Below, piece by piece: positions 6,201-63,995 of a stretch of DNA of 64,000 nucleotides. Position numbers and translations under genes: made by a program. The stretch's first letter is position 1. Each line of letters opens with the position of its first letter. The notes below the pieces were generated by a model. It saw only the letters and a program-made list of their open reading frames with translations. It made no database searches and was not told the origin of the DNA. The stretch is taken from contig CDROCS010003335.1 in the NCBI GenBank assembly GCA_977020255.1, forward strand, positions 186,001 to 250,000. The letters run 5' to 3'. Origin of the DNA: Obrimoposthia wandeli (taxonomy: Eukaryota).

Positions 6201-9200
6201 ATCAATTCTTTAATATAGAAAACTTGATCAAACTAATTCTTTTAATATGAAAACTCTATCAATTCTTTAATATGAAAAACTTGATCAAACTAATTCTTTT
6301 AATATGAAAAACTTTATCGATTCTTTAATATAGAAAACTTGATCAAACTAATTCTTTTAATATGAAAAACTCCAATTATTCTTCTAGCTCACTTACAATT
6401 CTACAACTAAATTCCAAGTTGCTCCGATGAAATCGCTGCGCTGCTCCTAATTGTCGCTCCGCGCAAGATCCAGTACTCGCTTTCAGTTCCGAGTAAATCG
6501 CTGTGCTACTCTGAGTTGTGGACCTGCGACTCGGCTTAGTTGAAGGGCTACGCTGCTTGTCTGATTTGAATCGTATCAGTTCTGAAATTTGCAATGCCAA
6601 TTCTGAAATGATTGAATTAATGTTGCTCAAAATTAGGAGCGCTCACCCAAGTTTTTCGCTGACTGTGTGTATCCGGTCGCGACAATGACTTTCTTCCTGG
6701 TTTTCTGTGTGGTAGGTGTGTCAATGACTTATATAGTCAATTTTCCCGCTGATTGCCTGTCAATCAGTCCAATTTCTGACTGCTGGATTCTTTGGTCAGC
6801 TTGTCACCTGGCCTCTTGAAGTCGGTGGCAATTAAAATGTAATGATTAAAAATATGCTTACTGTCAATCTTCTTCTTAATTAATTTTCCTTTTTCTTCGA
6901 TTAATCTATTTTCCTTGCTTACTTAATTTTTGCTTAGTTTTCTTAATTAATTTCTTTTTTTTTGCACTTTAATATTTTTCCAATCAACCTATATATATCA
7001 CACATCACACACGACCTTCGTGGTCCTCCTAATATTTATTCTTATCTTAATTTCAATAATTTTAATTTTGAATTTTAAAATTAATATTTTATTTAATTTT
7101 CAACCTTGCTTTCAAGGATTTTTATTTTAGTATAAATTCAACTAATTATTTTAATTTTCTAATTCCTAAACCTAACATAATTACACTTCTTTATATTACA
7201 CATATTTTGTAAAAATAGTTAAATTGACAAAGGGATTATTTTTGAAATGACAAATGTAGCTAAATAGCAGCCATAGGATGACTTTAAATAATAAATTAAT
7301 ATTTTTGTAAATCAAATTAGACATTTTACTTCCCAGTGAATCCGCTCGATTATTTTTTGGCTCAGAGTCAGATTAGATTTATAAACAATTCCTGATAGCT
7401 AATATAACATTATGTTAAAAACTGAAAATTCTTTTGACATTTACTTCATTTGGTAATACAACTTAAATTTAATTCATTATTAAAAAATCATGTCGAATTT
7501 TGCTTAATTTGATCTTTGAAAGTCTTTAAATATTTGTTTTTTAGAGTTATTACCCTTTTTTAATATAATTGAAGTAAGTAAATCGGATCGAATATGAAAG
7601 ATCAACAAAGTCGAGTAAAGTCTCACACCTCATATAGAAAATCAGAAAAACATACCGATACACACAAAGAATTTTCAACTGCCACGACTTGTTAATGGTG
7701 ACAAGGCGGTTCCAACTCAACGTCCTCGTTTTTGATATGATTTATATGTAGGTTTATATTATCTAGCTACCTACCTTTACACCCAGACTAGTATGTTGAC
7801 ATTGAGGTGATTTGCTTTAAGAGTGAGCCATTTTCTTTCAGTCCAATGGAAGTTTGTAGGTTTTATAGCCGTAGCTGAATTGATTTATTCTGTTGATATA
7901 TCTTAGTGTGTGAAATCTGCTCAATTGCTTAAATGTCAGTCGGGAATGAATTAATATACTCCGTAATTATTTTTGTTAATATGTAATAGTACACAATGCC
8001 TGTTCATTAATCAGTAGATACTGAAGATATAAGATGACTTTCAGTTGGTAGTCAGTCGTACTGAATTATCAGTCAGCACTGATAAATTGGTTTCTTGTCT
8101 GTATCGTTCATTACTTGTCGAAAATGTCATTACATTCCTATCCATTTTGTACGAATCTTAACTTAACATGAGAGGTGTATTTATATTTGCATATCAGAAA
8201 TTTATTATTGTTTTTTGTTAAAGAGAGGTATGAGAGAAAGAAGAATACATACAGTAAACCGATAATATGCGTTGAATAAAATCAAAAGTGAGCATAAGGT
8301 AACTACAGCAGTGGCAGGCCGTAGGCATATATATATATATATATATGTGTGTTCTGGACTGTTGCTATTGATGATGCTGTTGCCGGGTCCATCTGAGATT
8401 ATTGCAGCATTCGTGTGGATCGAATGCTGAGGGGAGTTGAGCTACAAGTTGTAATACATGACATTAAAAAATATTCGTTCATCTAAAAATCAGGTCTGAC
8501 GAGGACTTGAGCCCATCTTGAGGAAAAACTTTCGATTTCTGTATTTATAATTGAAATAAATTTAATTGATATTATTTTAACTCTAAAACTAAAAAAAATC
8601 TTTAATTTAACTGACGGTTACTTTGTCTATAAAAATTGTAAACTGTTTCAAATTACTCACAATGTTTATATAACCCACTAGTTTTGACATCTTTCTCCAA
8701 ACACTACAAGGAACTCGGTATTCTATTTTAAAATTTTCTTCATGAAAAATGTAAAATCGACTTTTACTAATACCGAAAATGTTATATTTTTAGTCATTTT
8801 CCTACAATCTTAGACAAAAATAAGGCTAATATACAAAAACTTTCGAAACTAAAATGCAATTTATTATCAGATTGCTGTAAACATTTTCTCAAAATATCAC
8901 AAAGTAATGTCAAATATCCTATCAAATTTAATAAACTTTTGGATAACAAAATTTATGATAGGTCAAATTATGTCACTCCGTTATTGAAAGGGAATATCTG
9001 TTTAGGTTTATTGTCTTATTAACGGTAATAAATTTTATTGGAATTCTCTGTTCTATAGCTAAATGAAGAGCAAATGTAAATTTAATAAATATAAAGAATG
9101 TAGCACTTTCTGTTATTTGGGCATACTACAGAAGAGTTGAGCTAAATCTCTTTATGAAAGTAAGCGAATAATTAGAAATACTGTGGCTTTCATCATTGAA

Positions 9201-12200
9201 GTCGCAAAATTTAATACGAATGCCTAGTGGGCTATTATTAGTAAGTAGAACAGGCGAGCTGGGATGAACCAAACAATCAGTTAAGGGGCCAAACCATTTA
9301 GCTCAGTTGCTATTTTTGTAAAATAGTAGAAAACGAATTTCAAACTGATAAAAAGAAAAAACGTACTTCGTATTGTTTTGAAAAGACACGAAGGGTTCTG
9401 AGAATATAATTTTAATTAGTGGTTAGATTATAAAAGAATGTACTTTTACGGATGAGTATATGATTCCAATTGCTATATTGGAGATCATTTAAAAGCCAAA
9501 TTTCAAAATGTGTGTTATATTTCATGAGAAAAAACTAATATTTTTTTATGATTTGGATTGAAATCAAAATAATCTATTTTATTATCTCGTAATTTATCAT
9601 GCTTTATTACTTGTATATCTTTTCTATCAATATTGATTTTCATTGCATTTAAACAAAATTAATTGGACATTACCAATACCGTGCTATGAATATAAAGTTA
9701 TTTAGATTTGGATATAATAGAAAGACTCAAAATCTTTAAAATAAAAAGTCTAATTTGTGGCAATTTAGAAAAAAAAAGATTTATCTGATCTGGCCTTTAA
9801 AGCACAAATTAATCGACAATTATCCTAAATTATCGAATTTTATATCTAGCAGCAAAACTTTAGTAAAACGAATATTAACGGACCGACAAAATGAAATATC
9901 CATAAATTGTTAGATTATACTTCCTTAATGAATTAATGTGTGTAGGTTGCAGTAAGAGAAAATAATGGTAGGTGCAAATCAATCGTCCAAAATGCATTGA
10001 TTGATTAAAGACTAATTGGACTGTCTAATTTCTGGTTGCTTCCAACGTTTCCCTCAGGATGGCTGGCATTCGTTCATTCCACTTCGTCAGTTCTTCTTGA
10101 CAAAAATGGCCCAATAAGCATTCGTATTAAATCATGCAACACCAAAATAAACAAATGTCTGTAATTGATAAAATAGCGCCTATTTTAAACACTTATCTTG
10201 ATAGTATCTGTTTACCCTTAAAATAAAAAGATCACAATCAAACAAATTTTCTTTAAAATTGGAATATTCTTTTAATAAATATTAATAAAATTTTATGCTT
10301 TTTCACTTGACTAATATTCGTTTTAATTTATAGTTTTTCATAATATGAGTTCAACACACACAAAATCATGATTTTGTCGATATCAGCTTCCCTTTTTGAT
10401 GAAAAATTTCTATCTAAAATTTGAGAGCTTCGTGATCAAATTTGTGGAGAGCCATATTGAACAAATACACATTTTTTGTGAAAATTTTATGAAAGAATTC
10501 ATATGGAGATTTATGTGGATCACAATTGTTTCCTTAACTCGAGTGAATCAGATACCCTATTGAATGTCTTTCTGGCTATCGCTGTGGACAATCTGGCGAA
10601 TGCCCAAGAACTCACTGCTGCCGAAGAAGAGAAGGCCAATCAGGAGCGTCTGGCTGCAGAGAGTGCTTTAGCAGCAGAGAATTCGGTTAGTACAGCTGTT
10701 GTAATGTTTTGTTTATGTACATATAACATTTTAACAAAGCTGTTAGAATTACATTAAAATTAAATAAAAGTTCCAGTACCAGCGAATATTTCATGGATAT
10801 CCCTTTGCCACTAATCAATGCCAGGATTTAATTCATACTCCTACTTATTACAAAAATATATTCTCACAAAGCCTAAATATTTTTATGATCTTGTCGAGCC
10901 TTGTGCAGTGAGCATGTATATGCAGCTTATGAGGACGCATATTGGTTAAATAAATTCTCATATAACAATTATTATGATGGGATATTTTACATTTATGATC
11001 CAAATATTTACAACAATTTAATAATGAATAAAAACAGTATCAATTTTGAAAGTTTTGAGAGGAGTTACAAAATACAAAAAATATAACAAACCGTTGGAAA
11101 AATTTTATTTCAGTTTATTTGAGTTTACAAGCCGAAAGTGAAATTATTTTAACAAGCTTTTACAAATAAAAAGTATTTAAATCAAAAATACACCATTTGA
11201 AAGAATGTGAAGAAAGGTAAACTATATATGTTTCCTAGAACTGGAATTTGAAGCAACATAATTAAGAAACGACAGTATATTAAAAGTACAATCTCAAGAT
11301 AAAGATTTGCATGATATTTGTATATCAATTAAAGTTCAGTATCCTACTATTTCGGTTACAGCTTTAAAAATTTGAAGTTAGTTTACACTACTTATATCTA
11401 TGAATCAGGACTTTTAGCCTTGGTAAATGTAAAGAGCAGAATGAGGGAGTCGCCACAGAGATTTGAGGAAGAAATGCGACTAAGCTTATCTGAGATTGGA
11501 CCTAGGATTTGTATCAAGAACTAGTTTTCAATAAGTTTATATTTAATATTATTTTATGAACTTGCTTTTCTTTACCTTTTTACTTTCTTTAAAAAACGAA
11601 AACCGTATTTCATATCTAAATAATATTTTATAATTTGAGGGCTGTAAGGGATGTTAAATTGTGAGATTACTGCACAAAATTTTCACCATTGCATTATACA
11701 CTGTTTCAGAGAAATCCTGACAACTTCATTGGTCGACTACCTCTATCGGCCGATCCCCCGATGGTTCAAGTTTGTCCTCCTTCTCCCCAAACCGCTAATA
11801 GCCTCGTTTCAAAGAATTTCTGCTTGTAAGTAAACCATTTTGTCTTGAATTTCCTATTTGTACCTTTTGTGCATTTTCAAATTGTTCTCATGAGCAACAC
11901 ATATTTCTATTTTTAGAAAATATTCTCTGAAATAAAATACTTGTGTAAAATTTGAGTCTTTAAATTAAAACCGGGAATAATAATTACACGCAGCCTAAAT
12001 ATTCATTATAGTTTGATCATATGGATTCGTTTATATATTTAAATAAAGTCATGGGAAGAAGGTTTCTAAACTTAATAAATTTTAATAATTTTAAACTCCT
12101 GTTCCATATTCGGATAACAAAATTGTGCATTTAAGTCTAAATGATACAGCCTTTATCCCATGCTAACATATTTCGTCTTTTCTTGTCCATGTAATATGTT

Positions 12201-15200
12201 TGAATATAAATTTGTTAATATAGATTCTGCATGTACTAATATTTGAATTGAGAATAAAAAAAAACGTAATGACGCGTTTCAAAACTACTGATTTTGGCAT
12301 GCTTTCTTTATTAGACTGTATTTATATGTAGTATTAAAATTTTACTTCGAAGTGCTAATTTTATTACCCCCTCAGTTCAAAATATAGATGCACGTCCCTG
12401 ATTATTTGCACTTCTTCCGTTCGAATATCAGCGATACAATTATCACCATACTCAAATTAATATAATCCAATGCTTTTTTCCGTATTTTTTTTCTAATTCA
12501 CCCACTTCTTGTAACGCTTCAAATGCTTTTAATTTATAAGAAATACATTCGCTTCGAAAAATATTTAATCGTCAATTTATCCAGTACATATGAAATTCCT
12601 CATTAAATACTTTAGATTGTAGTTTCATGTTTTATTATTAAAACATTTGCATTATTCAAACTTGATTAGAATTCAAAATATTTCTATTTATAACTCTTTT
12701 ATGAATCGGATACATCTTTTTAGAGTTAAAACTGTTTGAAACCAAACATAGAATTGTAAAAGAGCATTTTGTTTTAGAAATTGATTTGTTTTAAACCTGT
12801 TTGATGATTATTTTATAATTGTAAGAAATTCGTTGACAATTTTTAACTGAATCATACAGAGTATGATGAATAAATTTCTTTTTAAAATAGCAATGAATCG
12901 CAAACAGCATCGATCGTTGTAGGCTTTTTGATCAATTAACAATCTTGTGTCTGAAAATCTGAATATTTTATTGAATTTGACTTTATTTTTGTGTCTCAGC
13001 ACAACAGTTTAGAAAGTTATTTTAAATAGGCGATATAAAAGGAAATTTGAGTATCACTTGAAAGGAAGAACGATTCTGGAAGTTTTTCATTATTTTCTAA
13101 ATAAATTAAAATAACTGTTTGGTAATTGATGGGAGAGTATCTGTTTAAATCCGAACTTTCCCTCAAGATAGCTGGCATTTCGATCGTAGATCAGTGATTA
13201 GAATTACTGGGGATCAAAGTCCTCAACATATTATGAAACATTACTTGGGTACGTTATGTGGCTTTCTTCATACGAATGCCTATTGCGTAATTTTTCGTAA
13301 GCACCCCACACTATATTAAAATTTTCAACTTTATTGAAGAAAGCCACACATCGTACCCATATAAAGTTTGAGAATAATTAAAAATAAGAAGACCAAAAAG
13401 GAGACATTGTTTGATATTATCATTCAATTCCCAAATTACTTTATTGGTTAGCAGCACCTAAAACTTACGATTTGTACACACTAAAGAGGTAAGATTTTCC
13501 AATATAACTTTACTTTTCTTATTTTAAGAATATTTTAAAGCAACCTCTGAATCTATTTTAAGCCTCCAGACTACTACAAAATAGAATCATAAAATGAATT
13601 AAGAATAATTCAGATATAATAAGACAAACAATACTTACTAATTTTAACTTTTAAAATGCTTTCAAAAGGTTGCCAAATATCACAAAAAAAATCAAATTGT
13701 TTGAAAGTCCCCTGGGCATTTGTTCTTCTAGTTATCATAAAACCTCACTATGACCTTGATCTCTATTTTCAGTGAGCAGAACCAAGTGGAAATCAACGAC
13801 AAAGGTGCTCTGATTAACCAGCCAAATGGAAAGTTGGCCATGATGAACAAAAGTATGCCTATAAACCTTTAAGAAATTCGGTCCATGATTTAGTGTTATT
13901 TTAATCTAATAATTTTACTTGACGCTTTAATCAATCAGGCCATTGTGATTCACGAATGTGCTTTGTTTTTTACGCACATTTACATGTGTAGTTGTGTGTG
14001 ATTGGGGTTGTAGTCTATACATATCCATTGTTAGGCTAATATAGTTTAAAGCAGTGTTGGTGACCTTCAATATTTTATTACTCGGTTAGTTAAAGTGAAA
14101 GTTATGGGTAAATCTTAACAATTCTTAATGTTAAAGTAGAAAAATTAAAAACCCAATATATTTTCCCTCTAATATTATTAATAATAATGCTTGTTTAATC
14201 TAATAAAAAGCTTTGGCTCCAAGTACTTGTCTGCAAGTAAGATAGCGATATAAAGAAGCAGCAATTCTAGTTGAGCTGTTGATGGGATCATTGCATGTCG
14301 CAGGGCACGTTTTGATAAAAATGAATATTTCTTAAAAGTTATTACCAAAAAGATCCAACTCCATCGGAAGACGAAAGAGAATATGAAACTAACTTAACAA
14401 CATATGTATCCACCTCTAACAATTGGAGAATGTCACAGTAAAGATTTAAGAATGAAAGAGAATTGCGCTTCACGTTTTGAAGAGTTGAAATATTGTTCAA
14501 ACCAACTTAAACAAGGTTCGATTCATTATTTTGTCTACTTGTGTTTTCTTAAAATTAAATCAAATTAACAAAATATAACAAATAATTCTTTAAAATGCTT
14601 AATCCCTATTTTTACGAGCCAATCCAAAGAAAATATGGTCAATCTTGAATCTCTGAAAGTTGCGAGAATCTAATCAATGTTGATCCACAAAAAGACATAG
14701 AAATAAGTAGGTTATAACAGGATTATTCTGTATTCAATAATAATCGTCAAAATGTAGTAAAACGATTGATCTATTTTAAAAGTATAAGTTTAAGTGAAAA
14801 AAACAATTTAAATACCAAAAAAAACTATGGAACCCTTTGTTAAGTAAGTTTTGATAATGGGTTTCCCAGAAATAAAAATAGAGTCGAATCAAGATAAAAT
14901 AAACAAATTTATACATAATCACCTAACAAATATATACACATGAAAAATTCACTTTCATTTTTATTAAATACACACAAAATTTTGAATCGAATTATGAAGT
15001 GCAATGCTCTTAAAGGAAATCATTAAATTCCTCTTCATCAACGAAGCTGCAACTTTCTAAACAACCAGTGGTCTTCAAGATTAAACTCGGACGAATAAGG
15101 AGCCTGTCGTTTGCGTGAATGTCCATTTGAATACAGAGATAGAGTCATTATTGAGTATCATAAAGTCTCGCATTACCATGAATAAACCAACTGCTTCGCC

Positions 15201-18200
15201 ATTTAATAGGATTTGGCAGATGACTGAAATTTGGGACTTGTTTTGCAGAAATTGCGCATAAACCTGCTCATTTATATTTTACCTATGTGGGACTATTTCT
15301 GCATACGCTTCTCCACTAAAGGTTACTGCAACAATAACCTGGTATTTTTCTATCAGTGGGATTTTCAAGAAGCTTATCATTTTCCAGCTACTGGTTTGCA
15401 CCAAGGACGATTTGAAGCTTTTGTTCCCAAATCTCTCAGATAAAGCCAATTTTTGTCGTGTAAACTATCTGATTGGAATCATTTGCTTCAAAGAGATTCA
15501 ATACCTCTTGTGCAATTTCCCCACGACGAGCGTTTTGTTAGTCATGAGGTTGTTTCAGCATCAACTTGAAACATAGACGGGGGAGATGAAACTTAGAGTG
15601 TAAATTATTTTTGAAACTCCCAACTGCCAAACCGAGAGTTATACAGAGTTGCCAGATATATATTCAATTGGCGACCACTAGCACATTTTGAATTCGCCTG
15701 ATGTTGGAACCAGAAGCTGCAGTAGCCGGCCTTCCACTCCTTGCTGCATAATCAAGTAATTGCCTTTCTCCATCTTTAACATCCTTTATTTTCTCATGAC
15801 GGACGTTCTTCTTTCCATGCAATGTCGAGCATTTAGTGGATATCAGCTACGGATTAATTATTCCTCGTCATCGTTATCACAAAAAATGATGATTTTCACA
15901 CTTATAATTCATTTACTTTCGTGATCTAAATTAGTATCAAAATAACTTACTGATCTTTGAAAAACAATGAAATTCAAATTTCATAATGTAATTGCAAGTA
16001 GCAACAAATATTAGGGATTTTATGATTGCAATAAAATATTATTGATTTGACCAAGAGACCATATGAATGGTTCACTTTAAGCATAGTAAACGCCTTAGTA
16101 AAGATTTAAAAGTGACCAAGAAATAAGTTTGTTATAACACAATTATTCTGAATTCAAAAATAATCATAAAAAATATAGTAATCCTATTGATAAACTTGTA
16201 ATTAAGATGAATTCAAATTATTTTACCAAATCAATAATACATATTAGACAAGCATTATAAACCAAATATAAGTTTTTCCTTATTACTTTCTGAACAGTTC
16301 AAGTAGTATTCATTTAAAAGTATTGAATGTTTATAACCTAAACTGAATTTCAGACAACTCCAACTTTAATTCTACTGAAAGTGACCCTGTTCAAGTTGTC
16401 CCTGCCACGGAGAATATCCAGAGAAAACCCGTTCTGCCATACAGCTCCATGTTCATCTTCAGTCCGCTTAACAGGTTCCGTCAACATTTTTATCCTAGTT
16501 ATATTGAAGCAACTTTCGAATTTGCCAAAATTTGTCGTTACAACATTTACGTCTTCTATTATTTTTTAATAAACAAACTCTTTAAAATGTATAATTTATT
16601 TTGAATATTTTATGTTGAAATGAGATAAAAACGAGAAAGAAAACTAAAATGTGACATCAGGCTCCAGTTGATTTCTTTCCCAAATCAGGATCCGGAGATT
16701 CTGTCATTTTGTGGTGAACCTGAGATTCTTTGACCTGTTCATCATGATTGTCATATGCGCGAGCAGCATTGCCTTGGCCGCAGAAGATCCCGTATCCACC
16801 GATTCCTTGCGAAACGTGATACTCGAAAGGTTCGATTACGCATTCACCGGCGTCTTCACTGTCGAAATGACCCTAAAGGTTAGTGACACGCTCAGTCTTT
16901 CCTCGTTTCTGCTTATCAAAAATAGTTCAACAAGCATTCATATTAAATAGTTCGACTTAAAGTTATCTCGACATCAATTCTGTAAAGTCTGTTCATCTAA
17001 ATTTGACAATTTTGAATAAACTCTTTCAATTATGAAAGGTAAAAAGTCGTTTTTTACTGCTCTTACGTATGTAAATATCTTTGTTTACTACATGATTTGA
17101 AAGTACGACGTACATACCTGAAAATCCCATATCACCTATGGCTACCTTGGCCATGATTTTAAACCATCGAATGATTTGAGACAGTTTGACTAATATGATA
17201 TTTCCTCGGCAAAACTCTTGAGAAACTTCTGTTTCACTTAATGAACTTTCCTATTTCAATATAATTGAATACACACAACGCTGAGATACATTCATCTCAT
17301 TACAATATTTTATATGTTATATCTACCCTGATTTTGTATTGAACAATTAGATCCCTACGCTGCCATTCATTAAGGTTGTGCATTATATAGAATAATCTAA
17401 AATATCCGAATTTTATAGTGAATTGTTGGAAAAAGATTTTTGCATATTTTGGGATCAACCGTTAAAATATTTAAATGCTGGTTGATACTTCAATACTAGC
17501 TGTCTAACTCACTTAAAATGTTGACCTTGAAAATATGCAATAATATTTAGAACTATTCTTTGTAAATCAGATTTTGAATTGTACTTTATGAAATATACTT
17601 TATTTCCTTAACGAATTTTATAAACCTTCCTAAATAAATCTGTTGCTAAGAAATGTTAAGGACTTATAAGGAATTTACTTTATGTACATTTCATAACGTT
17701 ACTCAGCATTGTTGCTACCAGATAGGGATTGACCAATTAGAGACCGGTGTTCGTTAGGTATTTGCACTTTAGTGCGCGTTGGTTGTTTGACTATATAATA
17801 GACAGACATTTTGTGATGTTGAAGTTTGTTTTTGTAAGACGTTTTGGTTGCCAGAAAAGAATAATGAATAAATAATATCAGCTTTTTGTCCAACTATAAA
17901 ATTACATCGATTTGATTCATTTTGAATCTAAAATTAAATATATGACTTTCATAATTGAATATGCAATTTAATACATTAATCAATAAATTTTAATTACAAT
18001 ATAAACTCGATATTTTATCTGTGAACATTTAGGCGGTATTCATGAACTATCTTTAGTAAAAAGGAACAAGAAAAACTATCTATATTTCCTTAACGGATTT
18101 TATAAAGCTTCCCTAAATAAAGCTGTTGCTTAAGAAATTTTAAGGACTTTAAGGAATTCCCATTAGTATATATGAAATGTACTTATCTCAAGAAATTATT

Positions 18201-21200: not shown

Positions 21201-24200
21201 GCACGTATATGGTTTTGTCCTTACTTTTATGATGTCTAGCGAGACCCTTTGCAATCGTATTTGGCCGATTAGCCATTTCGTTTCTACAAATTCCGGTGTA
21301 TAGTTTATCGATATTCATATATTATATCCTTTATTTATATGTATTGTGTTATAAAATGTTTCGTATATTTTAGTTTATTTTCTTGAAATTTTGATGGAAT
21401 TAATAATTTATATTCGACCTTTTAGTTAGATAACAACAGTTTATACCGCTTGAATATCGCCTATAATCTTTTTTTAGAAATTTGAAGAGGCCTCTGGAAA
21501 AGTAATTAAACTCTTTTTCTGTTATTTTCTTCTCAACTAACAATACAGAACGCTCAAATAAAACTGCCAACTAGACAAATGAAAAGCTGTGTGTTTTTGA
21601 AATTTAATAAAATGTATTTAAATAGCTGAAATTATTTTTAGAGAAATACTGGAGTATCATCTTCTATGTTCAATTGATATACAGAGTTTTTAAAATAATC
21701 CATCGCATATTTGAAAATACAATAAATCCATTTTAAAGCAAGATAATTATTTAAATAAGCATCAATAATTTTTTTTAATAATGCCTGAAAATTATGCAGA
21801 GATTTTTCGAAAAATTTTCAATGATTTCTTTTGATGTTTCAGGAGAGATTGAAGCTTAGGCTTCAGTTATGTAGACTTTAAGCTCACCAAGGGTTGCTGA
21901 ACGTCTGGCGTTTACAAAATTCAAATTTGTAAACCAAATTTTGATTAGAATTCATTAAAACAATTTTAACTCAAAATTTGGTGTGATTTCAGAAATTTTA
22001 TTAAAACTTAACATTGAATCCACTTCAATAGAACACATTTAATTAATTGAAATTCTATTCATAAAATCAAATATAATTCAATTTCAATCCATTAGAGTCT
22101 ATTCATATCTTGTTTAAGTCTAAGGAAACATGTCTTCACAAATATACTGTCCTAAATGATCGAGTTACCATCTCCATCTAAGTTTACATATTGATTTTGT
22201 TTATAAACATTTTAATAAGATAAGATATGAAAATATCAATATTTTTTAATAACTTATAACATAATACCTCCAGCAGTAATGTTCCAAATTTCTTTCAAGC
22301 TTCCATCATGTTTTGTCTTGTAAGCTTGAATCATGACAAATAGCTCCCATTTTCTTATCATTGTCAACTTTGTAGTAATCCATGAAAATATATTCATGAG
22401 CTCGAATCATCATTAAATTATTATAGATCTTTTTTTCAATATTTAATTGATGAAAGAAATCAATCAGTTGTTTGATATCTTGTTCGTGCATATTCTTGAC
22501 GATTTGATCGAACTTTATTTTATTCAATTTGACGTGATTAAAGAAGAGATATGATAGGCTTCTTCAGTAGATACATAGCTCATTTACAATAATGACAAGG
22601 AGAAAAAAATTGAGAATTTTAAAAATTTGATGGTATTCTTGATTTTCTTTTTTTCGAATATATCTTCAAATAAATATTAGATAAAATCATTAGTATCCTT
22701 GTTTTTAATTTTCAATTAGATTGCATTGACGGTTGACTTGATATTTTTCTTCTCTAGAGTATTCTTGGGAATAACCTTCTTGATTTTGATGTTTGTCAAC
22801 ATTGTAATCAGAAGTAATGGCTGAATTTAATAGTTAGTTGTGTATATCCAACCTAACCTTACCTGATTAGTCAATCTTCAATTGGATCCATGTGTATGTG
22901 TATGTATATATGTTAGTATTGATTTGCTTATACTATTTGTGTATTTTAGAATTGTCTTTGTTTATACCATGTTGGTGTGTGTTCGTATGCGTACGTATAT
23001 GTATGTAAACCTGTGTGTAAATTATAACAGACAAATTATAAACCTCATCCTACCTTATAAATGGAAAATATGTCATTAAGTAGTATAAAACCTTGTCAAT
23101 ACATAGAAAAGCATGAAGCTTATACTTAGTCATTTTCAAATCACAAGATTTGTTAGGAATTTGTCGATAAGTGGGATATAGGAAACCAATTACAAGCCGG
23201 AATTTATAATATTGCATTAAAATTGAAAGAAATCAATCAGTTACAGTGACTAAAGATATTGGAAAGAAAATTGATTTGCATCGTTTATCAAATAAATCAA
23301 AAATGGATTGTATATTCGAACCGAAACTATTTTTTGCTCTCAGAGTGAATAATTATAATTCATTATGTGTTAATGTATTTTCAAGCTATAAAGTTATTAT
23401 TGTCAAACTCAAAGACTTGAAGTATTATTATGATGTTGTTTCACTTTTGCTTTTGCTTATAACATTATCTTAATTGTTATAAAATGAAATGCGATGGTTT
23501 AGTAAAATACTTATCTTATTATAAAAAGTTAAATGATCTATTAACCAAAACAATGATGAAATATATGAAAATAAAAGTCAAGTATGAAATGTATAGATTA
23601 GATATGAATTGATATTTATCATTTAGTATTAATTTCATAAACAATCCATTTCTAAGCAGTTTAGCAAAGGCTATATTTTACAAGCATGATAAATCTCAAC
23701 TGTATAATCTGGTAACTTGTATATTTTGTCATGGTAAAATCTCAAATTGAGAATTTTATGTTAAACCAATGAAACGTCATAGTTAATATTTTCCTTTATT
23801 TCCATTTATTTAAAAAATAAATGTTTCAATTGTGACATTGAAAGAGATAACAATATAAAATATTGATTTTTATACCAAACCAAAAGTATTTGTAGTGTAA
23901 ATAATAATTATGAAAATCTAATAATTTCACCAACAACTCATCTGAAATCCAATAAAGTTGAAACTGGGTGTATAATAGAACATTATATAATCGATGAAGA
24001 AATGAAAAGTAAATTTTATACACTTCAAGTTGTTAAAAGGAAAATAAATTTCAGCAAAGGAAGATTAAAATCTGTTCTATATTATAGATTAAAAACTGAA
24101 TGTGGTTATAATTCAATTGTTTATTAAATGTTAAGCATGATTGAACAAGGAACCATAGAAACGATTTATTAATATTTTATCATACATTGTAGAATATTTT

Positions 24201-27200
24201 GAATGTTTGAAATTGAAAAGATAGATGTCATGTTACTTCCATGTATCATTTGAAAACTTATTTAACATATTCTTAGAAAATTAATGATAAGTTCAATATG
24301 CAGACGAAGTATTGAACGAAGAGTTAGAAAAATCAGATTTCACAGTTTAAATATGTGCACAATCAAAACATCTTACCTAAAACAAATTTAAAAATTAATT
24401 GGTGCAATGTATATGAGATGAGATGATCCCGAAGACTTATTTAGTCGCAGCAGCACCCAAAGCGCTATTATCGAAAGTAAAATCAAGTCACGAAATAAAT
24501 ATATAGATGGTTGAGCAATCAACTAGCATACAATCTCATCGAGCACATGAAAAGAAGGTTTCCAACTCAAGCATATACGGTTAATAGTCCAATTTATTTA
24601 TGGCAAACCGATTTGAAGGAAATTGTATCTTATGCTACTATTAATGGGAGTTCCAAATATATTTTAATGTGTTGTTGGATGTTTGTTTTAATATTCGACA
24701 ATCCGTAAAACGGCAGAATTTGAATATATCGTTCTCCACACCATCTTGGATTTAACTACATAATGTATAGTATATGATATTAAAAAGGAAATACAGAGTA
24801 AGTTTTATGTGCAAATGTTACAGATAATTGATAAAGCTAGTGTATATAGAATTCAGAAAATCTTGAAATATACATGTAAAAGTGTAAATAAACTATACGA
24901 TATTTAAATGGGATGGTTGTTCAACACAGCCATAGATTTCAGCAAAATAGCTCGAATAAAAAGAATGTATATGATTTTACAATTTCCTAATACGCACCTA
25001 ATAATACTGGATCAAAATTTATTATCGATTGAAAACAATCCAATATAACTTGACGTATCATGAGAAGCAGCATAAACAGAGTTTACATATATGAATACAC
25101 ATTTTATCTTACAAAAACAAACAGTATAATAAAGTATATAGAAAAGAAAACTGAGAAATGGGAGATTATATTGGAATTATAATTCAATTGAAATCCAGAA
25201 AAGTAATAGTATCTCAAACAGAAACTTATTTATACCTGATTTGAAAATAACAAAAGTATAAGCTGTATGCTTTTTTATGTATTGACAATGTTTTGTACTA
25301 CTAAATAGCATATATTCCATATATCAGGTAGTATAAGCTTTATAATTAGCTTGTTATAGTTTATAATATATTTGAGAGTTTCATTATAAAAAGTATCTTT
25401 CAAATCACATCTCATTATATAGTATTTTACACACATACACAGAATAATAAAGTAGGTATTTGTTATAAGCTAATAATAAATATTTATGTCTTCCTTTCTC
25501 TTATCTTATTATAATGTCTATGAACAAAATCAAATTATATGGAGATGACGGTTAAATAAAACAGGGGAGAATATTTGTGAAAACATAACTCCTGAAACTT
25601 AAATAAGACAGAAATAGACTAATAGATTGAGAATAAATTGATTTAATTAATCGCATTGAAATTTGAATTATTGAATTTGTTTTAATGAAGTGAATTCAGC
25701 TCAAATTTAGAATTTACATCAATATTTAAATTACATTTCTTAACATATTTGAATTCATCGAAAAATTTGGATAATAAGTTTTCTTGGTTAAAAAGTGTCA
25801 GTTTTGTGGATGAACTATATCAAGTAGTCACTGTTATTAAAAAAAGTGTTTAAATGGTAAATTATATTTATTTTACATAATTTGCGTATAGGTCTAAAAA
25901 TCATGTCTAAAAGTTAAAAACTCGACCGTGAGTGCAAGTTCATTGTTGTGCAAACTGGCCACCAAACTGCCACTTTTTGTTTTTGTTTTTAAATAAAATA
26001 TCTTAATTAATTATTGAGGTATTGCATTTTGAAGGACTACACTACATACTTAATTCATTTTTCCCAGAAACTACAAACTATATTGGAAAAAATATTATAA
26101 AATCACCTAATAGATGAAAAATATCATCAAACAATGCGGTGCATTTATTGCATATAAAATAAAGGACATTATTTTATTAAATTTTCAACATTTACTTTCA
26201 TTTTTAATTCTGAATTTATATTTGAACGTACTGTACTTTATTGTGAACTTCACTGAAATTTGTTCTATTAACCTATGTAACATTTTGTAACATTTGGCGA
26301 TTCTTGCAGCCAAACAATATCTGAAGGTCGTTGTTGTAGATGTTTTAATGGATCTTCATTAGAAATTCAAAACAGCGGTTCCTAAATATTATTTTACTGC
26401 TATGTTTCATTTATATATACATATATTAGGAAAATAGTTATCTTAATAATTGGCCAAACAATCTATGGATAAACTTGTTTTTAGATGATTCTGAGTGAGA
26501 ACACCAATACTCAATGACTAGGTCACGACACTGCTGTTCAGATACAAGTTTCCTTTTTGGATTTTAAGCAAGCAAATTTTGATTAAAATTCCCGTGATCT
26601 TAATTTGAAGTGTGTCAAGGTTATTTTGTTAAAACAAATATTTTACATGAAAGGAGTTTTATTCTTGAATAAAAATACTATTAATTTAAAAAAATTGCAT
26701 TGAATAACTAATTTGTACTCTCTTAAATTTTGGTAAATTTTTTAAAAATTTCTTACATATTTTTATCATCTGTTTTTTATTATATTTCCTCTAGAATTTT
26801 TAAAATTCTTCGGTATTGCATTGGGAAACAAGAGTTTTCACATGTATTATTTCTATATCTTTTTATTAATTAACTTAGTCTTGCAAAGGCTCCAATTATA
26901 TCACTTTGTCAGTAGTTTTATAATACTTTTGAATGCAATATAATCTTACTACTTTTTTAGTTATAAGCATTTATGGTTATTTATTTACCTTTGAAGAATA
27001 TCTCAAAAATATCAACTCATTTTCTAAACAAACAAATATAACGAAGATAATGCATTTCATGAGATTTCATTTTTGATTTGAAGATCAACTCAGCATTTAA
27101 AGCTTGAAATAGTCAGCCAGAATTGAAATATTTTTTGTCAAATGCAAAAATAATTATGTGTCAGATTCGGTTAAAAAACGTTTTCATACATTTCGAATTC

Positions 27201-51200: not shown

Positions 51201-54200
51201 ACTTTTGTTACGAGTCCAGTTTTGTTGCTTTTCAAGGGTTTAAATATATTTGTTGATGTTGTCTCATATGAAGCATTTCAAATTCATCAAATATTAATTT
51301 GTAATCATTTTTTCTTAATTGCTGGGCAATTCGGGTTAAAATTATTTTGCTGAAGAAACAACATACTACAAGCCATGGTAATTAACAGTCCCATGTGTGT
51401 TTAGATAAATTAAAATAAATATTCATGAAAAAATGTACATTGAATAATTGAAAGGAAAAATGTAAGGTATTTTAAAATTTAAAAATATTTTCCCAGTAAT
51501 TCGAAATATTTCTAAAATAAAAAATTACAAAAACATTCTACTCACAAATGAAGTAGCTAAAATTCAAAATATTTCTTAAACAAAACTTTTTTGTACATTT
51601 ATAGAATTTTTTAATATAAATTTTATTGTATGTGTATCTGAAAATGTCTAAATGCTAAAATTTCTTGAACTAATTAGAAATGATTTAAACTAAACTTTTA
51701 TCATTGCGAATCGTAATTTTGATAATTTTAGAAAATTAGTGTCACCAAAAGAGTAAATTTTAAATTGGTACCATGCTAGCTGCCAGGTAATACAAGACAG
51801 ATCAACTCTCGCAGTGTCATGGCCAGATCAAATTATTTAGCAGCATAATATCTAAGTCTTTGAAATGAATTAAAAAAACTTTTAATAACATGTTTTTTAA
51901 AATACATAAATTTGAAATAAATTCGAATAAAATAATTTTGAATTATTAAATAAATTAATTAATTGGATTAAAATTAAATAATTATATATATTTTAGTTCA
52001 GTTAAACAAAACTAAAACTGAAGAATATTATCTCAATTTAATATCCAGAGAATACTTTGCTGAAATTCGGTATCTTCCTAGTATATGTAGGAACATCGTG
52101 TATCTCCCAAGTAGAAAGTTCCCTGAAAATGTCTGGTTTCACCCGAGTAAAGAATAGTAACGTAAAGTGTGCTTTCCTGCTTATTAGAGAGGCACATCAG
52201 ACAGACAATCTACTATAGAATGTTATACACGTAGAACGATTAGATCATTGGTACCCTTCCATCTGATCCAGATACAAAACAGGCACAAATTCAATATGTG
52301 ATTTATGCCTGTTCTATACTGAGCTTGGGAGATGTTCTCGTGAGTGACAAAGTACACTTTACATTTCTTAAAGAAATTGAACATAAAATATTATTCGATA
52401 CGAACTGATTCAAAGTAACCGTTACAACTTCAATTTTTAGTAATTCCCTAAATAAAATTATGTAATTTTTTGTTGTTGCAAGTTTACTAACTGTATTTTC
52501 TGAATTTCTAAGAATTGAAGTTGTAATAGTCATTTAGAATCAGACTTTTTTTTTAAAGCAAGAGCTTATACAATATTCTTGACACCCGCACAGGACTCTA
52601 ATTTTCTGAATCTGGGTTTCCTGCGTTTGTTTCGGGCGGCAAGACTCATCAAGCTTCTTCGACAAGGCTACACCATCCGGATATTGCTGTGGACCTTCAT
52701 TCAGTCGTTTAAGGCGCTGCCCTATGTCTGTCTTCTGATTGCGATGCTCTTCTTCATTTACTCCATCATTGGCATGCAAGTCAGTCTTTGAAAGCACCCG
52801 TTAATAATTTTATAAATGGCAAAATTGTGAGACGTGCTTTGTAATGTAACATTGCATGCTGAAACTCATATTTCAAAATTATTTGCACTTTTTCCTAAAT
52901 GATATATCAATACTAATAAAACAAAGAATGGTAAATTCTCAATAAACAAAATACAAATTATTCAAAATGGTCTACAAAAATGACAAGTCAGTTTCAAGAC
53001 TGCAAATTGCAAATGTTCAAACTCTTTCTCTTTTATTTGTAGTATATTTTTAATGAATAATGATCATCAGACGCCTTTAAAGAAGTTGTATCAATCTTAT
53101 AAAGCATACTTTGTTATGGATATCGGAGATTTAGGAAAATCATGGGCACATCAGTACTGGTACAACATCATTTTTGATTGGTATTGAAGTAAACCGGTAG
53201 CAACGCGGTTTCCTATTTCACTGATGTAGCAAAAACCCAAAAAATGCATTGATGGCTGCTTTTTTGTTTGAATAATATTTCAGTTTGAACAGAAAAAAAC
53301 AAAAGTATGTCCCCTACCTAATCCATCGGAAATATTATTAAATCACACAATGAAATTTTAACAGAATAATTTGATTCCAGATGGCAGTACTCGATAGAAA
53401 TAAATAATAATAATGGTTAATATACTTTGTTAAGGTAGTCAAATTATATAATACGCAAATACAGCTATTTAATTTGATAGGACTGTTGCAATTTAGCAAA
53501 CGTCAATAGGCATTATTAGCCTCAATAAATAGTTAAAATGGAATTAAAACTTAAACCAGTGGTTTCCAAAGTGTGAGGCTCGACCCTCAAGGGGGCGACT
53601 GATTTTCGAAGCTATTTTTTGAAAGTTTTCTTTTTCTCAGTGGAGCGCCTTCTAAAAAGTTTGGAAATCGCTGATTTAAAATATTAGATTAAAATTATAT
53701 AGTTTTTTTCATGCTTTTTAAAAGCCTTCTACCGATCTTTGATTGAAAATACAGCTGGGAATATTTCTGCTCAGAAGTTGTCAATAGAAATGAGTCTAAT
53801 TGGATGACAAATTCGACAAAGTTTCTTCGAACTTAAATGAGTCCCGTCTGAATGAGTTGAGGAAATCATTTGCATAATTAATAGTGCCTCTATTCTTTCT
53901 GCAGGTATTCGGAAACATCAAACTCGAGAGCGACAGTCAGATCAATCGACACAACAACTTCCAGACTTTCACCAATGGCCTGACATTGTTGTTCAGGTAC
54001 ATCTATATCTCCTGTTCTCTCAGCTTCACCACCAGATTCCTGTCATTAACTCCAGACGTTCTCGCTGTATAATAGTCATTTTTTCAAAATATCTAAATAA
54101 AGTTTCACTTCATTTAATTTCAAATCTATAAATTTCGATCAAATATTTTAGCTATTCGCAGTCAATGGTTGCGATGTGTGGCTTTCCTAATTGAAATCTC

Positions 54201-57200
54201 TTGATTTAATACGAATGCCTGGATGGTTTTTTTTGGTAAGCAGAACTGCCGATGTACGATGAACTAAACATTCAGTTAAGATGCAAGTTGGAGCCATGAA
54301 AAACTGTGAATGGGCAAAACGGTTTTGATGTGAAAATCTATAATGAGATTTATTGAAAGTTGTCATACGTCAGGGTGTTTCAAAATCTGGTGCAAAAAGT
54401 AAATCAATTTATATCTTATCCAAATATAAAAATATGTTGTAGTTTTCGAATTTAAAACGTTTGAATATCAGATTTTTTGATTTTACATATATTTTTACAT
54501 AAAACCTTTATATCTTGACATAATTATTTTTAAAATTATAACCATTTTTAATGAAAACAAAATATATATACAGCCAATATTTATATTGTATATTCAAATA
54601 TATCTATATTTAACTCAAACAACAATTCATATGTGTAAAGCACGTCGAATACAGAATTTTGGAATGTATTCTGACATAATTCCGAGATTCTAGTTTCGAA
54701 TTTTTAATTCTGATATGGAGCTTGGATCATCTCAATACACATAATTTTTGATTGTTCCCTAAGGTTTGGTGATAAAGGAGCCCTTTGTTTCTGAATCTTC
54801 TACAGTATCTATGTTCTGGTATAGTAACCTCCAAGTGTTCAGAGTTCACACGATGTTTCATTCTTCTTATTGTGCAAGCGATTCAAGTTAGCACATTCCT
54901 ATATGTATTCTTGTTTTATCCTTTTTTCATACTTTTCACTACACTATGAAATTAAAATATATACACCAAAAGTTGTGCAATTTCACGATGTATATGATGA
55001 GGAAAGTTTCAAATTTTAAATAATGTTAAATAAACAATGTTGTTTGAAGTCTTGTTTTAATATTCTATAATCCGTGAAACAGCCGAATTTAAATATATTT
55101 TGCTCCAAGCCATCTTGGATTTGGGATTTGACTACAAACAATATATGAAATCTAAGTCACCATCCGTGATACAACCGACATGCATGGAAATAGTACCAAC
55201 TGCGTCTACTCAATATACGTTTAACTATACGTCAAGAATTTTAATCGGATAAAAGATGACGACGGAATAATGTACCAAAGTCCGACATACACTAATTCTA
55301 TAGAAATTCTTGTAATAAATTTTCAATTTCTCGATTTCAAATTCCCCAATAAAACGTCAAAAGACATTTCATCTATAGACAATTTATATCATCATGTAGA
55401 CATTATTCTATATAGTATTCTATAGTATACAAAACTTTGAGACATTAATTTCACCCCTTAGGTTTATTGTACATACACAATATATGCGTGAAACAACACT
55501 TGAGAAAATAATTTAATTTTTGAAAATAAATAAAGTCATAAAAAATATTAAGCATATATAAATTAACAAGCTGTGAAAAATATTTATATTTTAGAGTTGT
55601 AAAATGTCTGATAATGATAAAAAAACTGAAAATATATGTCGAAAATATCGCAATAAAAATATTTACAAAGTGAATAATGTCCATAAGCACTTCTTTCATT
55701 TAAACACAGCCATTAAGCTGATCATAACCTGAACATAATGCATTTTTTTATTTGAAATTGTGAAAAGCACGTTATTAATAATTCGAAAATTTTCTTTTCA
55801 TACTTAAAAGATTTCACGACGAATAAACACAATTAGTTTCTTTGAAATATATAATCAATAATAAAATTATTATATAATTAAATTTCAACTATTTATATTA
55901 AAACCCAAAGGTTCAATTTACCCAATACTGACAGATTAATTTAATCGTTCATCTGTTTGATGAAATAATGATATTTAATTTTTGAACTGACTTTTGAAAC
56001 ACCCTGTACTAATCGAACCATGTGGTATCTGATTCAATCCAGAGTTTCCCTTGGGATAGCTGGTAAATGAAGAAAAATTTGTATCGAGTAAGGCAAATGG
56101 TTAGAAGTATTGAAAATGTAAGGTCCACAACTTATTCTCGAACTATAAAGGGGTACTTTTTGTGGATTTCTTTGGTATGAATAGACCAACTTTATAAAAA
56201 TGAGTTTAGAAAGTTATATATATGCATGTTTTTTACAAACCACTATGTGGTAATGATGTTGTGTTTACTTCTTTATGTAGAATGTAGTTCAAACAAAAAG
56301 CATGTATAGACGTTAGTAGAAATATATGTAATGAAAGGCCCTTAGGGGCATATAAAATCAAATTCAGGCAGGGTTACACAAAAGAAATATAAGGTCAACT
56401 GAATAAATACTAATTATTCCGGTCAAAGAAAATTTAGTTTCTTCATGAAATGGTTTCTGCGCTGGGTGTTGTCTAAAGCTCCCATTTGCACAGGTGCGCA
56501 ACCGGAGAATCGTGGCAGGAGATAATGCTGGCATGTGATGCCGAAGCAAGTTGTGTCAAAAAGACGATGGACGCCGACTGTGGGAGCACGCTGACTTATC
56601 TTTACTTTGTGTCCTTCATTTTCTTCTGCTCCTTCCTCATGCTCAATTTGTTTGTGGCTGTTATCATGGACAACTTTGACTATCTCACGCGAGACTCTTC
56701 CATACTGGGTCCTCATCACCTCGACGAGTTTATCCGAGTGTGGGCCGAGTACGACCCCGGAGCCAGGTTTGTCATACTCCTCGTCCCATTTTACATAGCA
56801 ATCAGCCCTGTCTTTGACACACTAAGTATTACAAGACCCATAAGCCAGTGATTTTGAGCTAATGTAACAGACAATAAAATGACAAGAAGAAAAATAAACT
56901 TTAAATTGTCTATCATGTCTCAACATGACATTGTTCAGCTTAAAATTTTAAATAGCACAATTATTCGATTAACTTACATTATTCATGAAAGTACAGCGCC
57001 AAAATAAAATAAGTAATGAACGAATAATTTCGAGAGTTAGTAGAAAGGTACTGATAAAGAATTCTACTAAGTCCCTTACGCTTACCTTCAAATGTCGCTC
57101 CGATCTCCCTGTAGGACTAAAATTACACAAAATATAAGTTTGCAATTTTGGAAGCAAGGATGTTTTTTAGTTAACGGAATAGAAAACTAAAAGTGTCGTC

Positions 57201-63801: not shown

Positions 63802-63995
63802 GATATCAGTAGGTGGATGTGTCCGGTCTAATCCACACCCCCTTCCCCCCATTGTCCTTTAAAACCGTGCATGTGTGTGGAGTGAAATTTCACTCCATAC
63901 ACCTACACGAAATTTCACTCCACACACATGCACGGTTTTAAAGGACAGGGGGGAGGGGGTGTGGATTAGACCGGACACATCCACCTACTGATATC
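63802..63995. repeat. GC-rich 194-bp foldback (palindromic MITE-like element)
   Basis: Arms 63802-63891 and 63909-63995 are complementary apart from 3 extra nt in the left arm; 17-nt spacer. Confidence 0.93.

Follow-up and report, generated by a model that had tools for sequence, protein, structure and literature searches.

Pieces of an internal 28S rRNA segment dispersed in a genome, probably as cDNA patches captured at breaks

We found that one internal segment of 28S rRNA is dispersed through the host genome in thousands of pieces. These pieces are probably independent cDNA patches of the host's mature 28S rRNA that were captured at breaks, with no master element involved. RNA-templated insertion at breaks has been documented chiefly in experiments and in human data sets of small size; if our explanation is true, the genome would hold a natural large-scale record of such insertion at chromosome breaks, and thousands of neutral, datable insertions of known ancestral sequence would become available for mutation-rate work.

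28S rRNA pieces in the window and in the genome

The window is the whole stretch of DNA analysed here, 64 kb in length. A scan of the entire window with Rfam gave no LSU match and a scan of a 1.3-kb slice gave only a weak one, so host rDNA was taken as the reference (L022, G000:C6911; 28S positions are L022 positions minus 7813). All six places that a sequence-only reading had assigned to one 28S segment matched host 28S nt 1021-1397, and the internal deletions it described were evident on alignment. Using nhmmer, we detected eight 28S pieces in the window (E from 2e-21 to 0.02) and no matches in the reversed window sequence that served as a control. In agreement with that reading, which recognised no other part of the rDNA, there were zero pieces from 18S, 5.8S or the 3' part of 28S. 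Identity to host 28S was 77-89%, apart from one weak piece at 69%.

The piece at 9182..9293 (plus strand, nt 1271-1382) was 89% identical to host rDNA, and weak similarity continues 5'-ward across an internal deletion to about 9145 (28S ~1190-1230). A tail-to-tail fusion joins 9933..10070 (plus strand, nt 1021-1178, 79%, 3-nt and 17-nt deletions) to the inverted piece 10069..10145 (minus strand, nt 1285-1361, 83%); its junction, read from decayed sequence, appears to include about 5 nt of microhomology. The 3' end of the inverted piece coincides with a genome-wide hot spot. In the same way, 13136..13303 (plus strand, nt 1135-1336, 83%, four deletions of 4, 10, 1 and 19 nt) is fused tail to tail with an inverted fold-back partner at 13314..13377 (minus strand, nt 1242-1305, 87.5%). 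Another minus-strand piece lies at 16907..16961 (nt 1285-1339, 80%). Further downstream, 54164..54284 (plus strand, nt 1258-1378, 84%) is the first unit of a head-to-tail tandem whose second unit has its right half at 56008..56172 (plus strand, nt 1119-1282, 77%). The weak piece at 54282..54359 (plus strand, nt ~1029-1118, 69% over a 70-column core, E 3.6e-5) is the left half of that second unit. Between nt 1118 and 1119 the unit is interrupted by a 1636-bp element (54371..56006) with 45-nt terminal inverted repeats that are 76% complementary; its longest open frame is at most 82 aa, and we take it to be a Tc1/mariner-type derivative. The region 54164-56172 looks like a single tandem insertion that was later split by this element. 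Three pieces were absent from the earlier list (10069-10145 and 16907-16961, both minus, and the weak plus-strand match at 54282-54348). When the fusions and the split tandem are taken together, the window pieces trace to about 4-5 insertion events, fewer than the six independent copies first proposed. Two exons lie nearby on the plus strand: a probable channel alpha-1 exon at 10560..10688 (start of the II-III linker, no Pfam match), which we presume to belong to a voltage-gated calcium-channel alpha-1 gene, and an exon of the same gene at 56495..56767 (Ion_trans, PF00520, E 6e-16). The 28S pieces sit in non-coding DNA, probably in introns of this gene, and we propose no function for them there.

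The idea that the copies were something other than random rDNA debris was borne out genome-wide, where coverage with host 28S peaked sharply on the segment in question. In first-look searches, a 361-nt probe (28S nt 1123-1483) gave 5148 candidates and a 66-nt probe (nt 1163-1228) gave 1216; the corresponding counts of candidates were 321 with nt 1-817 as the probe, 128 with 419 nt from near nt 1455, 491 with the terminal 1142 nt of 28S, and 1296 with 18S in full. Four of the six rRNA pieces in 400 kb sampled elsewhere came from the same segment and none from ETS, ITS1, 5.8S or ITS2, while the 80 kb adjoining the window contained no pieces of the segment. The window was thus richer in pieces than the genome on average (for at least five in 64 kb, P is about 5e-4), an excess that is only partly explained. 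The genome total is roughly 5,000-15,000 pieces. Identities of the copies to rDNA ranged from 100% down to 77%, indicating that the process is long-running and also recent.

Descent of the copies and their 3' ends

The 71 fetched loci, which included repeat fetches of the same places, fell into 44 unrelated junction classes. The 44 copies had been chosen by high score and are therefore young. Each was nearest to rDNA: none of 895 pairs was closer to each other than to rDNA, the summed pair distance was 0.97 of the expectation under independence, and the commonest variant occurred in 5 of 42 copies, with no diagnostic changes in common. The older window pieces behaved similarly, 16 of 18 pairs being less alike than either piece was to rDNA and none of the 18 more alike than the better rDNA match. 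The best genome matches of the first window copy were rDNA itself and near-perfect rDNA copies (at most 89%), with two shorter alignments reaching 90-91%.

These observations weigh heavily against the view, favored in the sequence-only reading, that an internal part of 28S was amplified from one or a few masters into a family, either as a SINE or carried by a transposon. The many copies and the sharp coverage peak would suit such a family, and a few changes recur among old window pieces, with G1139T, G1316T and C1322T, for example, each present in three of them; however, these changes are A/T-ward like general decay and may also reflect earlier states of the rDNA. A D5-like variant that had been read as a family mark is present in the host's ordinary 28S (L020 2738-2790) and so cannot mark a family. 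Besides the star phylogeny, the structure of the 44 copies argues against a family: neither a tail nor a short TSD was found, and the 5' ends were scattered over nt 818-1281, whereas a SINE would have a defined head. Flanks at the 3' side were unrelated and without base bias over 12 positions, and fixed ends with common flanks, as for cargo of a MITE, Helitron or LTR element, were absent among the 44 unrelated junction classes. The segment also has two internal T4+ runs (nt 834 and 1324) and no sense A or B box of a Pol III promoter by the consensus patterns that we assumed. One 18S piece (nt 631-1355) is transposon-type cargo, with fixed ends and common flanks within a shared repeat that measures 2.7 kb or more. 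For the 28S segment, the SINE family is largely refuted, and we consider descent from masters extremely improbable.

The 3' ends of the 44 independent copies were strongly clustered, with 28 at nt 1361-1375, 6 at nt 1381-1389, 6 at nt 1406-1410 and 4 elsewhere. The three clusters, with 40 of the 44 ends, fall on linkers that the Rfam structure line shows as unpaired, or on the margins of such linkers, and only 4 of 39 dispersed matches crossed nt 1439. A reference error as the reason for this drop-off was excluded by four dispersed copies that run across nt 1340-1439 at 97-100%; one of them begins at nt 1345.

Insertion junctions and the template

Two empty sites could be rebuilt. The first (L147) showed 6 and 5-6 nt of microhomology and a deletion of 8-9 nt, the second (L082) 2 nt of microhomology and a 2-nt deletion; microhomology with microdeletion, as in class 2 templated sequence insertion, was therefore seen at both. 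Flanking duplications of about 32, 110, 250, 345 and 540 bp were found in 5 of 44 copies, and none of 9-31 nt. Matches of 6-8 nt that might be short TSDs also occurred in 5 of 44 copies, against 2.3 expected from mismatched flanks (threshold of at least 6 nt). No base-composition signal of a target or nick consensus was present beside either junction in the 44 copies, and the old window events had no convincing flanking duplications. This junction anatomy suggests endonuclease-independent insertion at double-strand breaks.

The same data bear on whether the copies might be tailless retropseudogenes, in which a LINE endonuclease nick at its preferred site yields a T-rich flap that primes internally on A-rich linkers of intact 28S, followed by target-primed reverse transcription (TPRT) and a staggered second nick. 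Ends at A-containing single-stranded linkers, 5' truncation and the duplications flanking five copies would agree with this route. Yet short TSDs were no commoner than in mismatched-flank controls, a target consensus was missing, both empty sites carried deletions, and most of the duplications far exceed LINE TSDs. This origin therefore appears unlikely.

The template left a further trace at the 5' side. Among 38 dispersed matches near nt 818, 30 begin at nt 813-830 (about 25 of these independent), with the mode at nt 818 and no starts at nt 799-812; A817 is spanned by 8 of the 38, and in one read-through copy (L008) base 817 was read as A. The mode is one base 3' of the adenosine equivalent to yeast m1A645, A817 being in register with yeast m1A645, Am649, Cm650 and Cm663. 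m1A at this position is conserved from yeast to human and is a strong reverse transcriptase (RT) stop, and cDNAs arrested at m1A end at p+1. We infer that A817 carries m1A in this species and that arrest of RT at this base caused the pile-up. A 5' boundary at m1A+1 supports an RNA template for the 28S copies. A comparable pile of 18S 5' ends was expected just after U1191 (m1acp3Psi) and was not confirmed: every one of the best 40 matches, from 262 candidates, crosses the site, shorter matches being invisible here, and 18 sequences aligned across it (rDNA units and shared-repeat copies included) had no mismatch at this base. Similarly, no clear pile of ends was seen among the best matches of the 28S 3' probe at the base near the 28S 3' end that we take to be equivalent to human m3U4530.

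Capture at the DNA level was also considered, in which parts of the rDNA array (from circles, R-loops or fragile sites) enter breaks and DNA structure sets their ends. DNA patches too give microhomology, deletions and inversions according to passages of PMC5110952, A817, U1191 or D7a is crossed by some of the copies, and a few 18S pieces (L108, L110) extend into ITS1 or adjoin it. In addition, a second class of pieces crosses the D7a region intact; because mature protostome 28S is usually cut there, some templates would have been precursor RNA or DNA. However, DNA capture leaves unaccounted for the 5' boundary with its mode at m1A+1, the position of 3' ends in rRNA linkers and at the natural 3' terminus of 28S, and the lack of spacer pieces in the 400-kb sample. 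Moreover, the 28S/18S fusions, 28S(+)/18S(-) chimeras in L079, L087 and L095, fall at preferred ends of both molecules. As a general explanation, DNA capture is quite improbable.

A discrete processed template is another candidate. If 28S were cut in vivo at ~nt 817 and ~nt 1364, by extra hidden breaks or as decay intermediates, RT would copy the fragment end to end and the 5' boundary would be a cut. Clustering at both ends is consistent with this, as are the tail-to-tail fusions, which fit free RNA 3' ends as primers, and a 28S tandem jump in L079, which passes onto a second molecule at nt 1367 as from a free 3' end. On the other hand, the 3' ends occupy a 15-nt stretch and two additional sites, most of the 5' ends lie scattered, the boundary coincides with the m1A+1 base, and for mammalian tailless copies, in passages of PMC5322556, no truncated RNAs that match them were found. 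We regard end-to-end copying of such a fragment as very unlikely; a mixed form, with a 3' cut and a 5' m1A stop, is compatible with capture of cDNA patches at breaks.

For that preferred explanation we propose the following mechanism. A free end, usually a broken chromosome end and sometimes another rRNA fragment, would anneal to an accessible unpaired linker of 28S through 1-6 nt of microhomology; the usual linker would be the one that directly follows the small hairpin closing at nt 1360, with nt 1381-1389 or 1406-1410 used less often. The copies end at these positions, and priming at the linkers would explain it. RT, most likely that of a non-LTR retroelement able to jump templates, would then copy 5'-ward and usually drop off within 100-500 nt, the few copies reaching A817 mostly halting there. 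L1 ORF2p accepts 5-nt primers as well as RNA primers and is able to jump between templates. Microhomology-mediated end joining would attach the cDNA to the opposite end of the break, with either a small deletion or a long tandem duplication as the result and without a tail or short TSD, and the copies would decay neutrally and later be split by transposons. A broader proposition is possible, though we hold it to be doubtful: mature LSU rRNA may be a routine template for repairing heritable breaks, with one linker as the general landing site of broken DNA ends and RNA primers and about ten thousand primer-extension products whose ends record, over evolutionary time, m1A, accessibility and possibly an undescribed rRNA cut site.

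Related systems and other rRNA pieces

The closest parallel is class 2 TSIPs, or endonuclease-independent retrotransposition, described in passages of PMC5110952 as short patches from elsewhere in the genome, without TSD and poly(A) and with microdeletion and microhomology at junctions; cDNA used to repair a break was proposed. People carry 25-30 TSIPs each, and "ribosomal" does not occur in those passages, whereas here one internal rRNA segment dominates, its fixed copies number in the thousands, their ends are preferred positions, and their 5' boundary is linked to a modification. Therian tailless retropseudogenes (passages of PMC5322556) likewise have no tail, arise independently from abundant RNA and are 3' truncated at defined single-stranded positions, but they are L1 TPRT products with TSDs, which are absent here, and they under-represent rRNA, with 10 copies derived from 28S and 2 from 18S against thousands here. 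SINE28, as presented in part of PMC4994717, also consists of dispersed 28S-derived copies that were repeatedly re-derived from rRNA (27 human loci among 109 LSU fragments). It comes from the 28S 3' end, however, and combines an A-rich tail with TSDs of 5-28 bp, L1 nick hexamers and transcription by Pol III, whereas our pieces derive from internal nt 818-1410 and have neither tail nor TSDs. Chimeras of 28S rRNA and LINE-1 (parts of bioRxiv 10.1101/2025.02.02.635956) similarly carry 28S fragments that are internal, measure a few hundred nt and have a recurrent end, which was attributed to template switching or ligation. They occupy 18 loci and mostly share the orientation of the LINE; the partners seen here are other rRNA pieces, often tail to tail, and most copies are without a LINE. 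Displaced, decaying human rDNA units (PMC5381670) are likewise neutral, genome-dispersed rDNA-like debris, but they include intergenic spacer and near-full units of DNA origin, unlike the mature-rRNA segments found here with a positional peak of at least 30-fold. In the Creative Commons literature of PMC and bioRxiv, we found no comparable population of rRNA retro-copies and no m1A stop in genomic copies.

If the explanation is true, a modification-linked stop would separate RNA from DNA origin by genome sequence alone, and rRNA modification could be inferred for organisms without RNA data. Besides, 28S copies of this kind can mislead phylogenetics based on rDNA, the filtering of reads and the annotation of repeats, which would mislabel them as SINEs.

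Systematic fusion to LINE or mRNA copies was rejected, since coding frames beside the junctions were not in excess (4 of 176 flank-strand combinations with at least 80 aa). In one locus (L031), a piece of a further 28S segment lies tail to tail with a truncated non-LTR RT frame. The two 18S copies of the rDNA were 82 mismatches and 66 gap columns apart, which may reflect an assembly error in C6911 or a real second rDNA type; the C2426 copy was matched better by the dispersed pieces.

28S pieces in the window

The host genome is AT-rich and 1.35 Gb in size. Its rDNA unit on contig C6911 comprises 18S, 5.8S and the first 1699 nt of 28S, the 28S 3' part lies on C2426, and we take the host rRNA to resemble that of flatworms. 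Comparison with this reference revealed eight 28S pieces in the window, all within nt 1021–1397 (E 2e-21 to 0.02; 77–89% identity to rDNA), and relaxed BLAST added a ninth, weak piece; the reversed window sequence, used as a control, had zero matches to rDNA. As the sequence-only reading had proposed, only one rDNA sub-region was present, 18S, 5.8S and the 28S 3' part all being absent from the window, and several internal deletions were evident against host rDNA. The D5-like motif which it took for a family variant is the host's own 28S sequence.

The six copies it counted were all real 28S pieces, but they represent fewer insertions. A plus-strand piece at 9933–10070 (nt 1021–1178) directly joins a minus-strand piece at 10069–10145 (nt 1361 to 1285), and a plus-strand piece at 13136–13303 is followed by a minus-strand piece at 13314–13377. 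At 54164–54284, nt 1258–1378 is followed by a weak piece to about nt 1118, and a 1636-bp element with terminal inverted repeats (54371–56006) directly precedes nt 1119–1282, which starts at 56008; this reads as one tandem insertion that was later split, its left half being weak. Joining the fused and split pieces therefore gives 4–5 events. An Ion_trans exon at 56495–56767 and a probable exon at 10560–10688, which we take to belong to the same calcium-channel gene, locate the pieces in that gene's non-coding DNA.

Other repeats in the window include tandem arrays at 4836–6371 (58-bp units, 26.6 copies) and 38258–38617 (16-bp units, 22.5 copies), a near-perfect, MITE-like inverted repeat at 63802–63995 (arms of 48 and 45 nt, 96–98% complementary), similar sequence to which flanks a 28S piece elsewhere (L032), and long inverted-repeat pairs at 22096–25620 and 33150–35025, spaced 1.5–3.4 kb, which are probably old DNA-transposon ends.

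Genome-wide peak and ends of the pieces

Searches along the host 28S peaked sharply on the same segment, with 5148 candidates for a 361-nt probe (nt 1123–1483) and 1216 for a 66-nt probe (nt 1163–1228), versus 321 for nt 1–817, 128 for a 419-nt probe starting near nt 1455, 491 for the last 1142 nt of 28S and 1296 for the whole 18S. These first-look candidates, which are not copy numbers, amount to ~14–18 per nt in the peak versus 0.3–0.7 elsewhere. Forty 10-kb stretches, sampled at fixed positions on contigs from earlier match lists, contained 4 peak-segment pieces plus one each from 18S and the 28S 3' part, with ETS, ITS1, 5.8S and ITS2 unrepresented. The 4 pieces extrapolate to ~13,500 genome-wide (95% range 3,700–34,600). 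The window is above this average (P ~5e-4 for 5 or more); the 80 kb flanking it held no piece of the segment and one of nt 513–846. Lower repeat cover (13% versus 33%; 6–19% in the four sample stretches with matches) and compound insertions explain part, but not all, of the excess.

The 71 fetched loci (repeat fetches included) represented 44 independent junction classes, 91–100% identical to rDNA and, being selected by score, young. Their 3' ends fell at nt 1361–1375 (28 copies), 1381–1389 (6), 1406–1410 (6) or further upstream (4). With the nt 1163–1228 probe, which imposes no selection on the 3' end, 22 of 29 loci (duplicates counted) ended at nt 1361–1375. By the Rfam structure line, this cluster covers the linker past a small hairpin closed at nt 1360 and the first positions of the following helix; the other two clusters are internal loops. 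Only 4 of 39 dispersed matches crossed nt 1439. The 5' ends were mostly scattered, as expected of a reverse transcriptase (RT) that drops off. With 3' ends spread over three clusters and most 5' ends scattered, it is very unlikely that the template was a fragment already cut at both ends.

Longer copies showed a 5' boundary. Among the best 40 of 52 candidates for a probe of nt 798–897, two rDNA units being excluded, 30 of 38 dispersed matches started at nt 813–830 (mode nt 818; ~25 of them independent), none at nt 799–812, and 8 spanned the site. The first A in the loop of helix 25.1, A817 lines up with yeast m1A645, and Am649, Cm650 and Cm663 keep the same register (positions from PMC5199042). 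Yeasts and human are reported to share m1A at this site, where it strongly stops primer extension (bioRxiv 10.1101/313874), and cDNA is reported to end one base 3' of m1A (PMC4787781). The boundary at A817+1 is the best evidence for a mature-rRNA template, m1A being presumed in this species. This stop trims only the tail of long copies; it is the 3' priming site and short cDNAs that determine the peak.

Relations among copies and their junctions

The sequence-only reading had suggested a 28S-derived SINE or amplified family. The predicted peak was found, but in 0 of 895 overlapping pairs were the two copies more similar to one another than either was to rDNA. Summed pair distances were 0.97 of the independent expectation, and the most frequent variant occurred in 5 of 42 copies. 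An old window copy, used as query, matched best to rDNA and near-perfect rDNA copies (89%), with only two alignments, both shorter, at 90–91% among the best 40 of 1051 candidates. In 16 of 18 pairs, window pieces were less alike than either was to rDNA. On the other side, three changes each recur in three window pieces; they are A/T-directed and may also be older rDNA states. The 44 junction classes showed neither a 3' tail nor biased base composition on either side, and their short TSDs were no more frequent than in mismatched-flank controls. A promoter scan with general A and B box patterns found neither box on the sense strand of the segment. In contrast, SINE28 copies are described as tailed, with TSDs and with nick sites of the L1 type (PMC4994717). 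With such star-shaped relations, a SINE or transposon-borne family is extremely unlikely. Changes of C to T and of G to A were only ~1.5-fold commoner at CpG sites (3.6% versus 2.3%) among the 44 young copies; CpG observed/expected was 0.83–0.86. Both values suggest little DNA methylation in this genome.

Two copies lay in repeats with empty sites among the sampled sequences: one (L147) had microhomology of 6 nt and 5–6 nt at its two ends and had lost 8–9 target bases, and the other (L082) had 2-nt microhomology and had lost 2 bases. Direct duplications of ~32, 110, 250, 345 and 540 bp flanked 5 of 44 copies. Three of 44 were fused tail-to-tail to 18S pieces with overlaps of 1–6 nt, and one locus (L079) also jumps head-to-tail from one 28S molecule to another. 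Such tail-to-tail fusions are the reverse of twin priming; the simplest reading is that the end of one rRNA served as primer on the second. In L031, a 28S piece of a second class, starting further downstream, adjoins tail-to-tail a truncated non-LTR RT frame (L030 and L031:745–1365; weak RVT_1 match), which did not continue on the far side of the piece.

These junction features are those of class 2 templated insertions, for which an origin as break-patching cDNA has been described (PMC5110952), and they also match the abilities of a non-LTR RT, which can use 5-nt and RNA primers and jump templates (PMC10830420). A free end would anneal for a short time to the exposed linker of 28S, an RT working in trans would copy a few hundred bases, halting at m1A if reached, and end joining would seal the cDNA patch. 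We consider this the probable origin of the 28S pieces; the end positions, the star-shaped relations and the junction types are observed, whereas the m1A in this species, the break and the enzyme are presumed. Canonical TPRT yielding tailless copies is unlikely. Tailless retropseudogenes are known, with only 10 from 28S listed in human (PMC5322556). The kind of event is already known from such retropseudogenes, SINE28 (named as the 28S case in a review of rDNA and transposons, PMC10946416), 28S/L1 chimeras (bioRxiv 10.1101/2025.02.02.635956) and class 2 insertions. A comparable scale, one internal peak or a boundary linked to modification had no precedent in our searches of the open literature.

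Second-class 28S pieces and 18S

Second-class pieces (L025–L033 and the matches to the 419-nt probe) start near nt 1447–1515 and span D7a intact. D7a is described as the usual cut site in protostome 28S (PMC6925239); therefore, these pieces were copied from uncut RNA or from DNA, unless this animal cuts its 28S at another place. Capture of rDNA at the DNA level would fit these intact pieces and is, beside the boundary at A817+1, quite unlikely for the dispersed pieces. Six of nine second-class pieces share an end just past D7a, with divergence beyond, and this may point to an unusual cut site in 28S.

A 5' pile-up was also predicted after 18S U1191. All of the best 40 of 262 candidates spanned the site, in a search blind to shorter matches and in which a repeat-borne 18S piece crowds the ranking; at U1191, 18 aligned sequences were free of mismatches. 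This gives no support for a modification stop in 18S; one chimeric 18S piece starts at nt 1197. The repeat-borne piece (L114, L119–L123, e.g. G000:C3282:254520-255247; 13 of the best 40 18S matches) has fixed ends, nt 631–1355, within a shared repeat that is 2.7 kb or longer with 93–98% identity and, unlike the 28S pieces, is a true transposon-borne rRNA fragment. Two full 18S copies (L104 and L105) show 82 mismatches and 66 gap columns when aligned, reflecting either a second rDNA type or an assembly error; dispersed pieces are closer to L105.

Elsewhere, a tandem array with a ~1157-bp period (G000:C492:190864-207338) carries a 40-nt 28S piece (nt 1345–1384) in its units. A 28S copy on G000:C2426 contains ~350 nt of extra sequence (L023:5096–5447) at what we take to be the R2 target site, possibly a truncated or deleted R2-type element.
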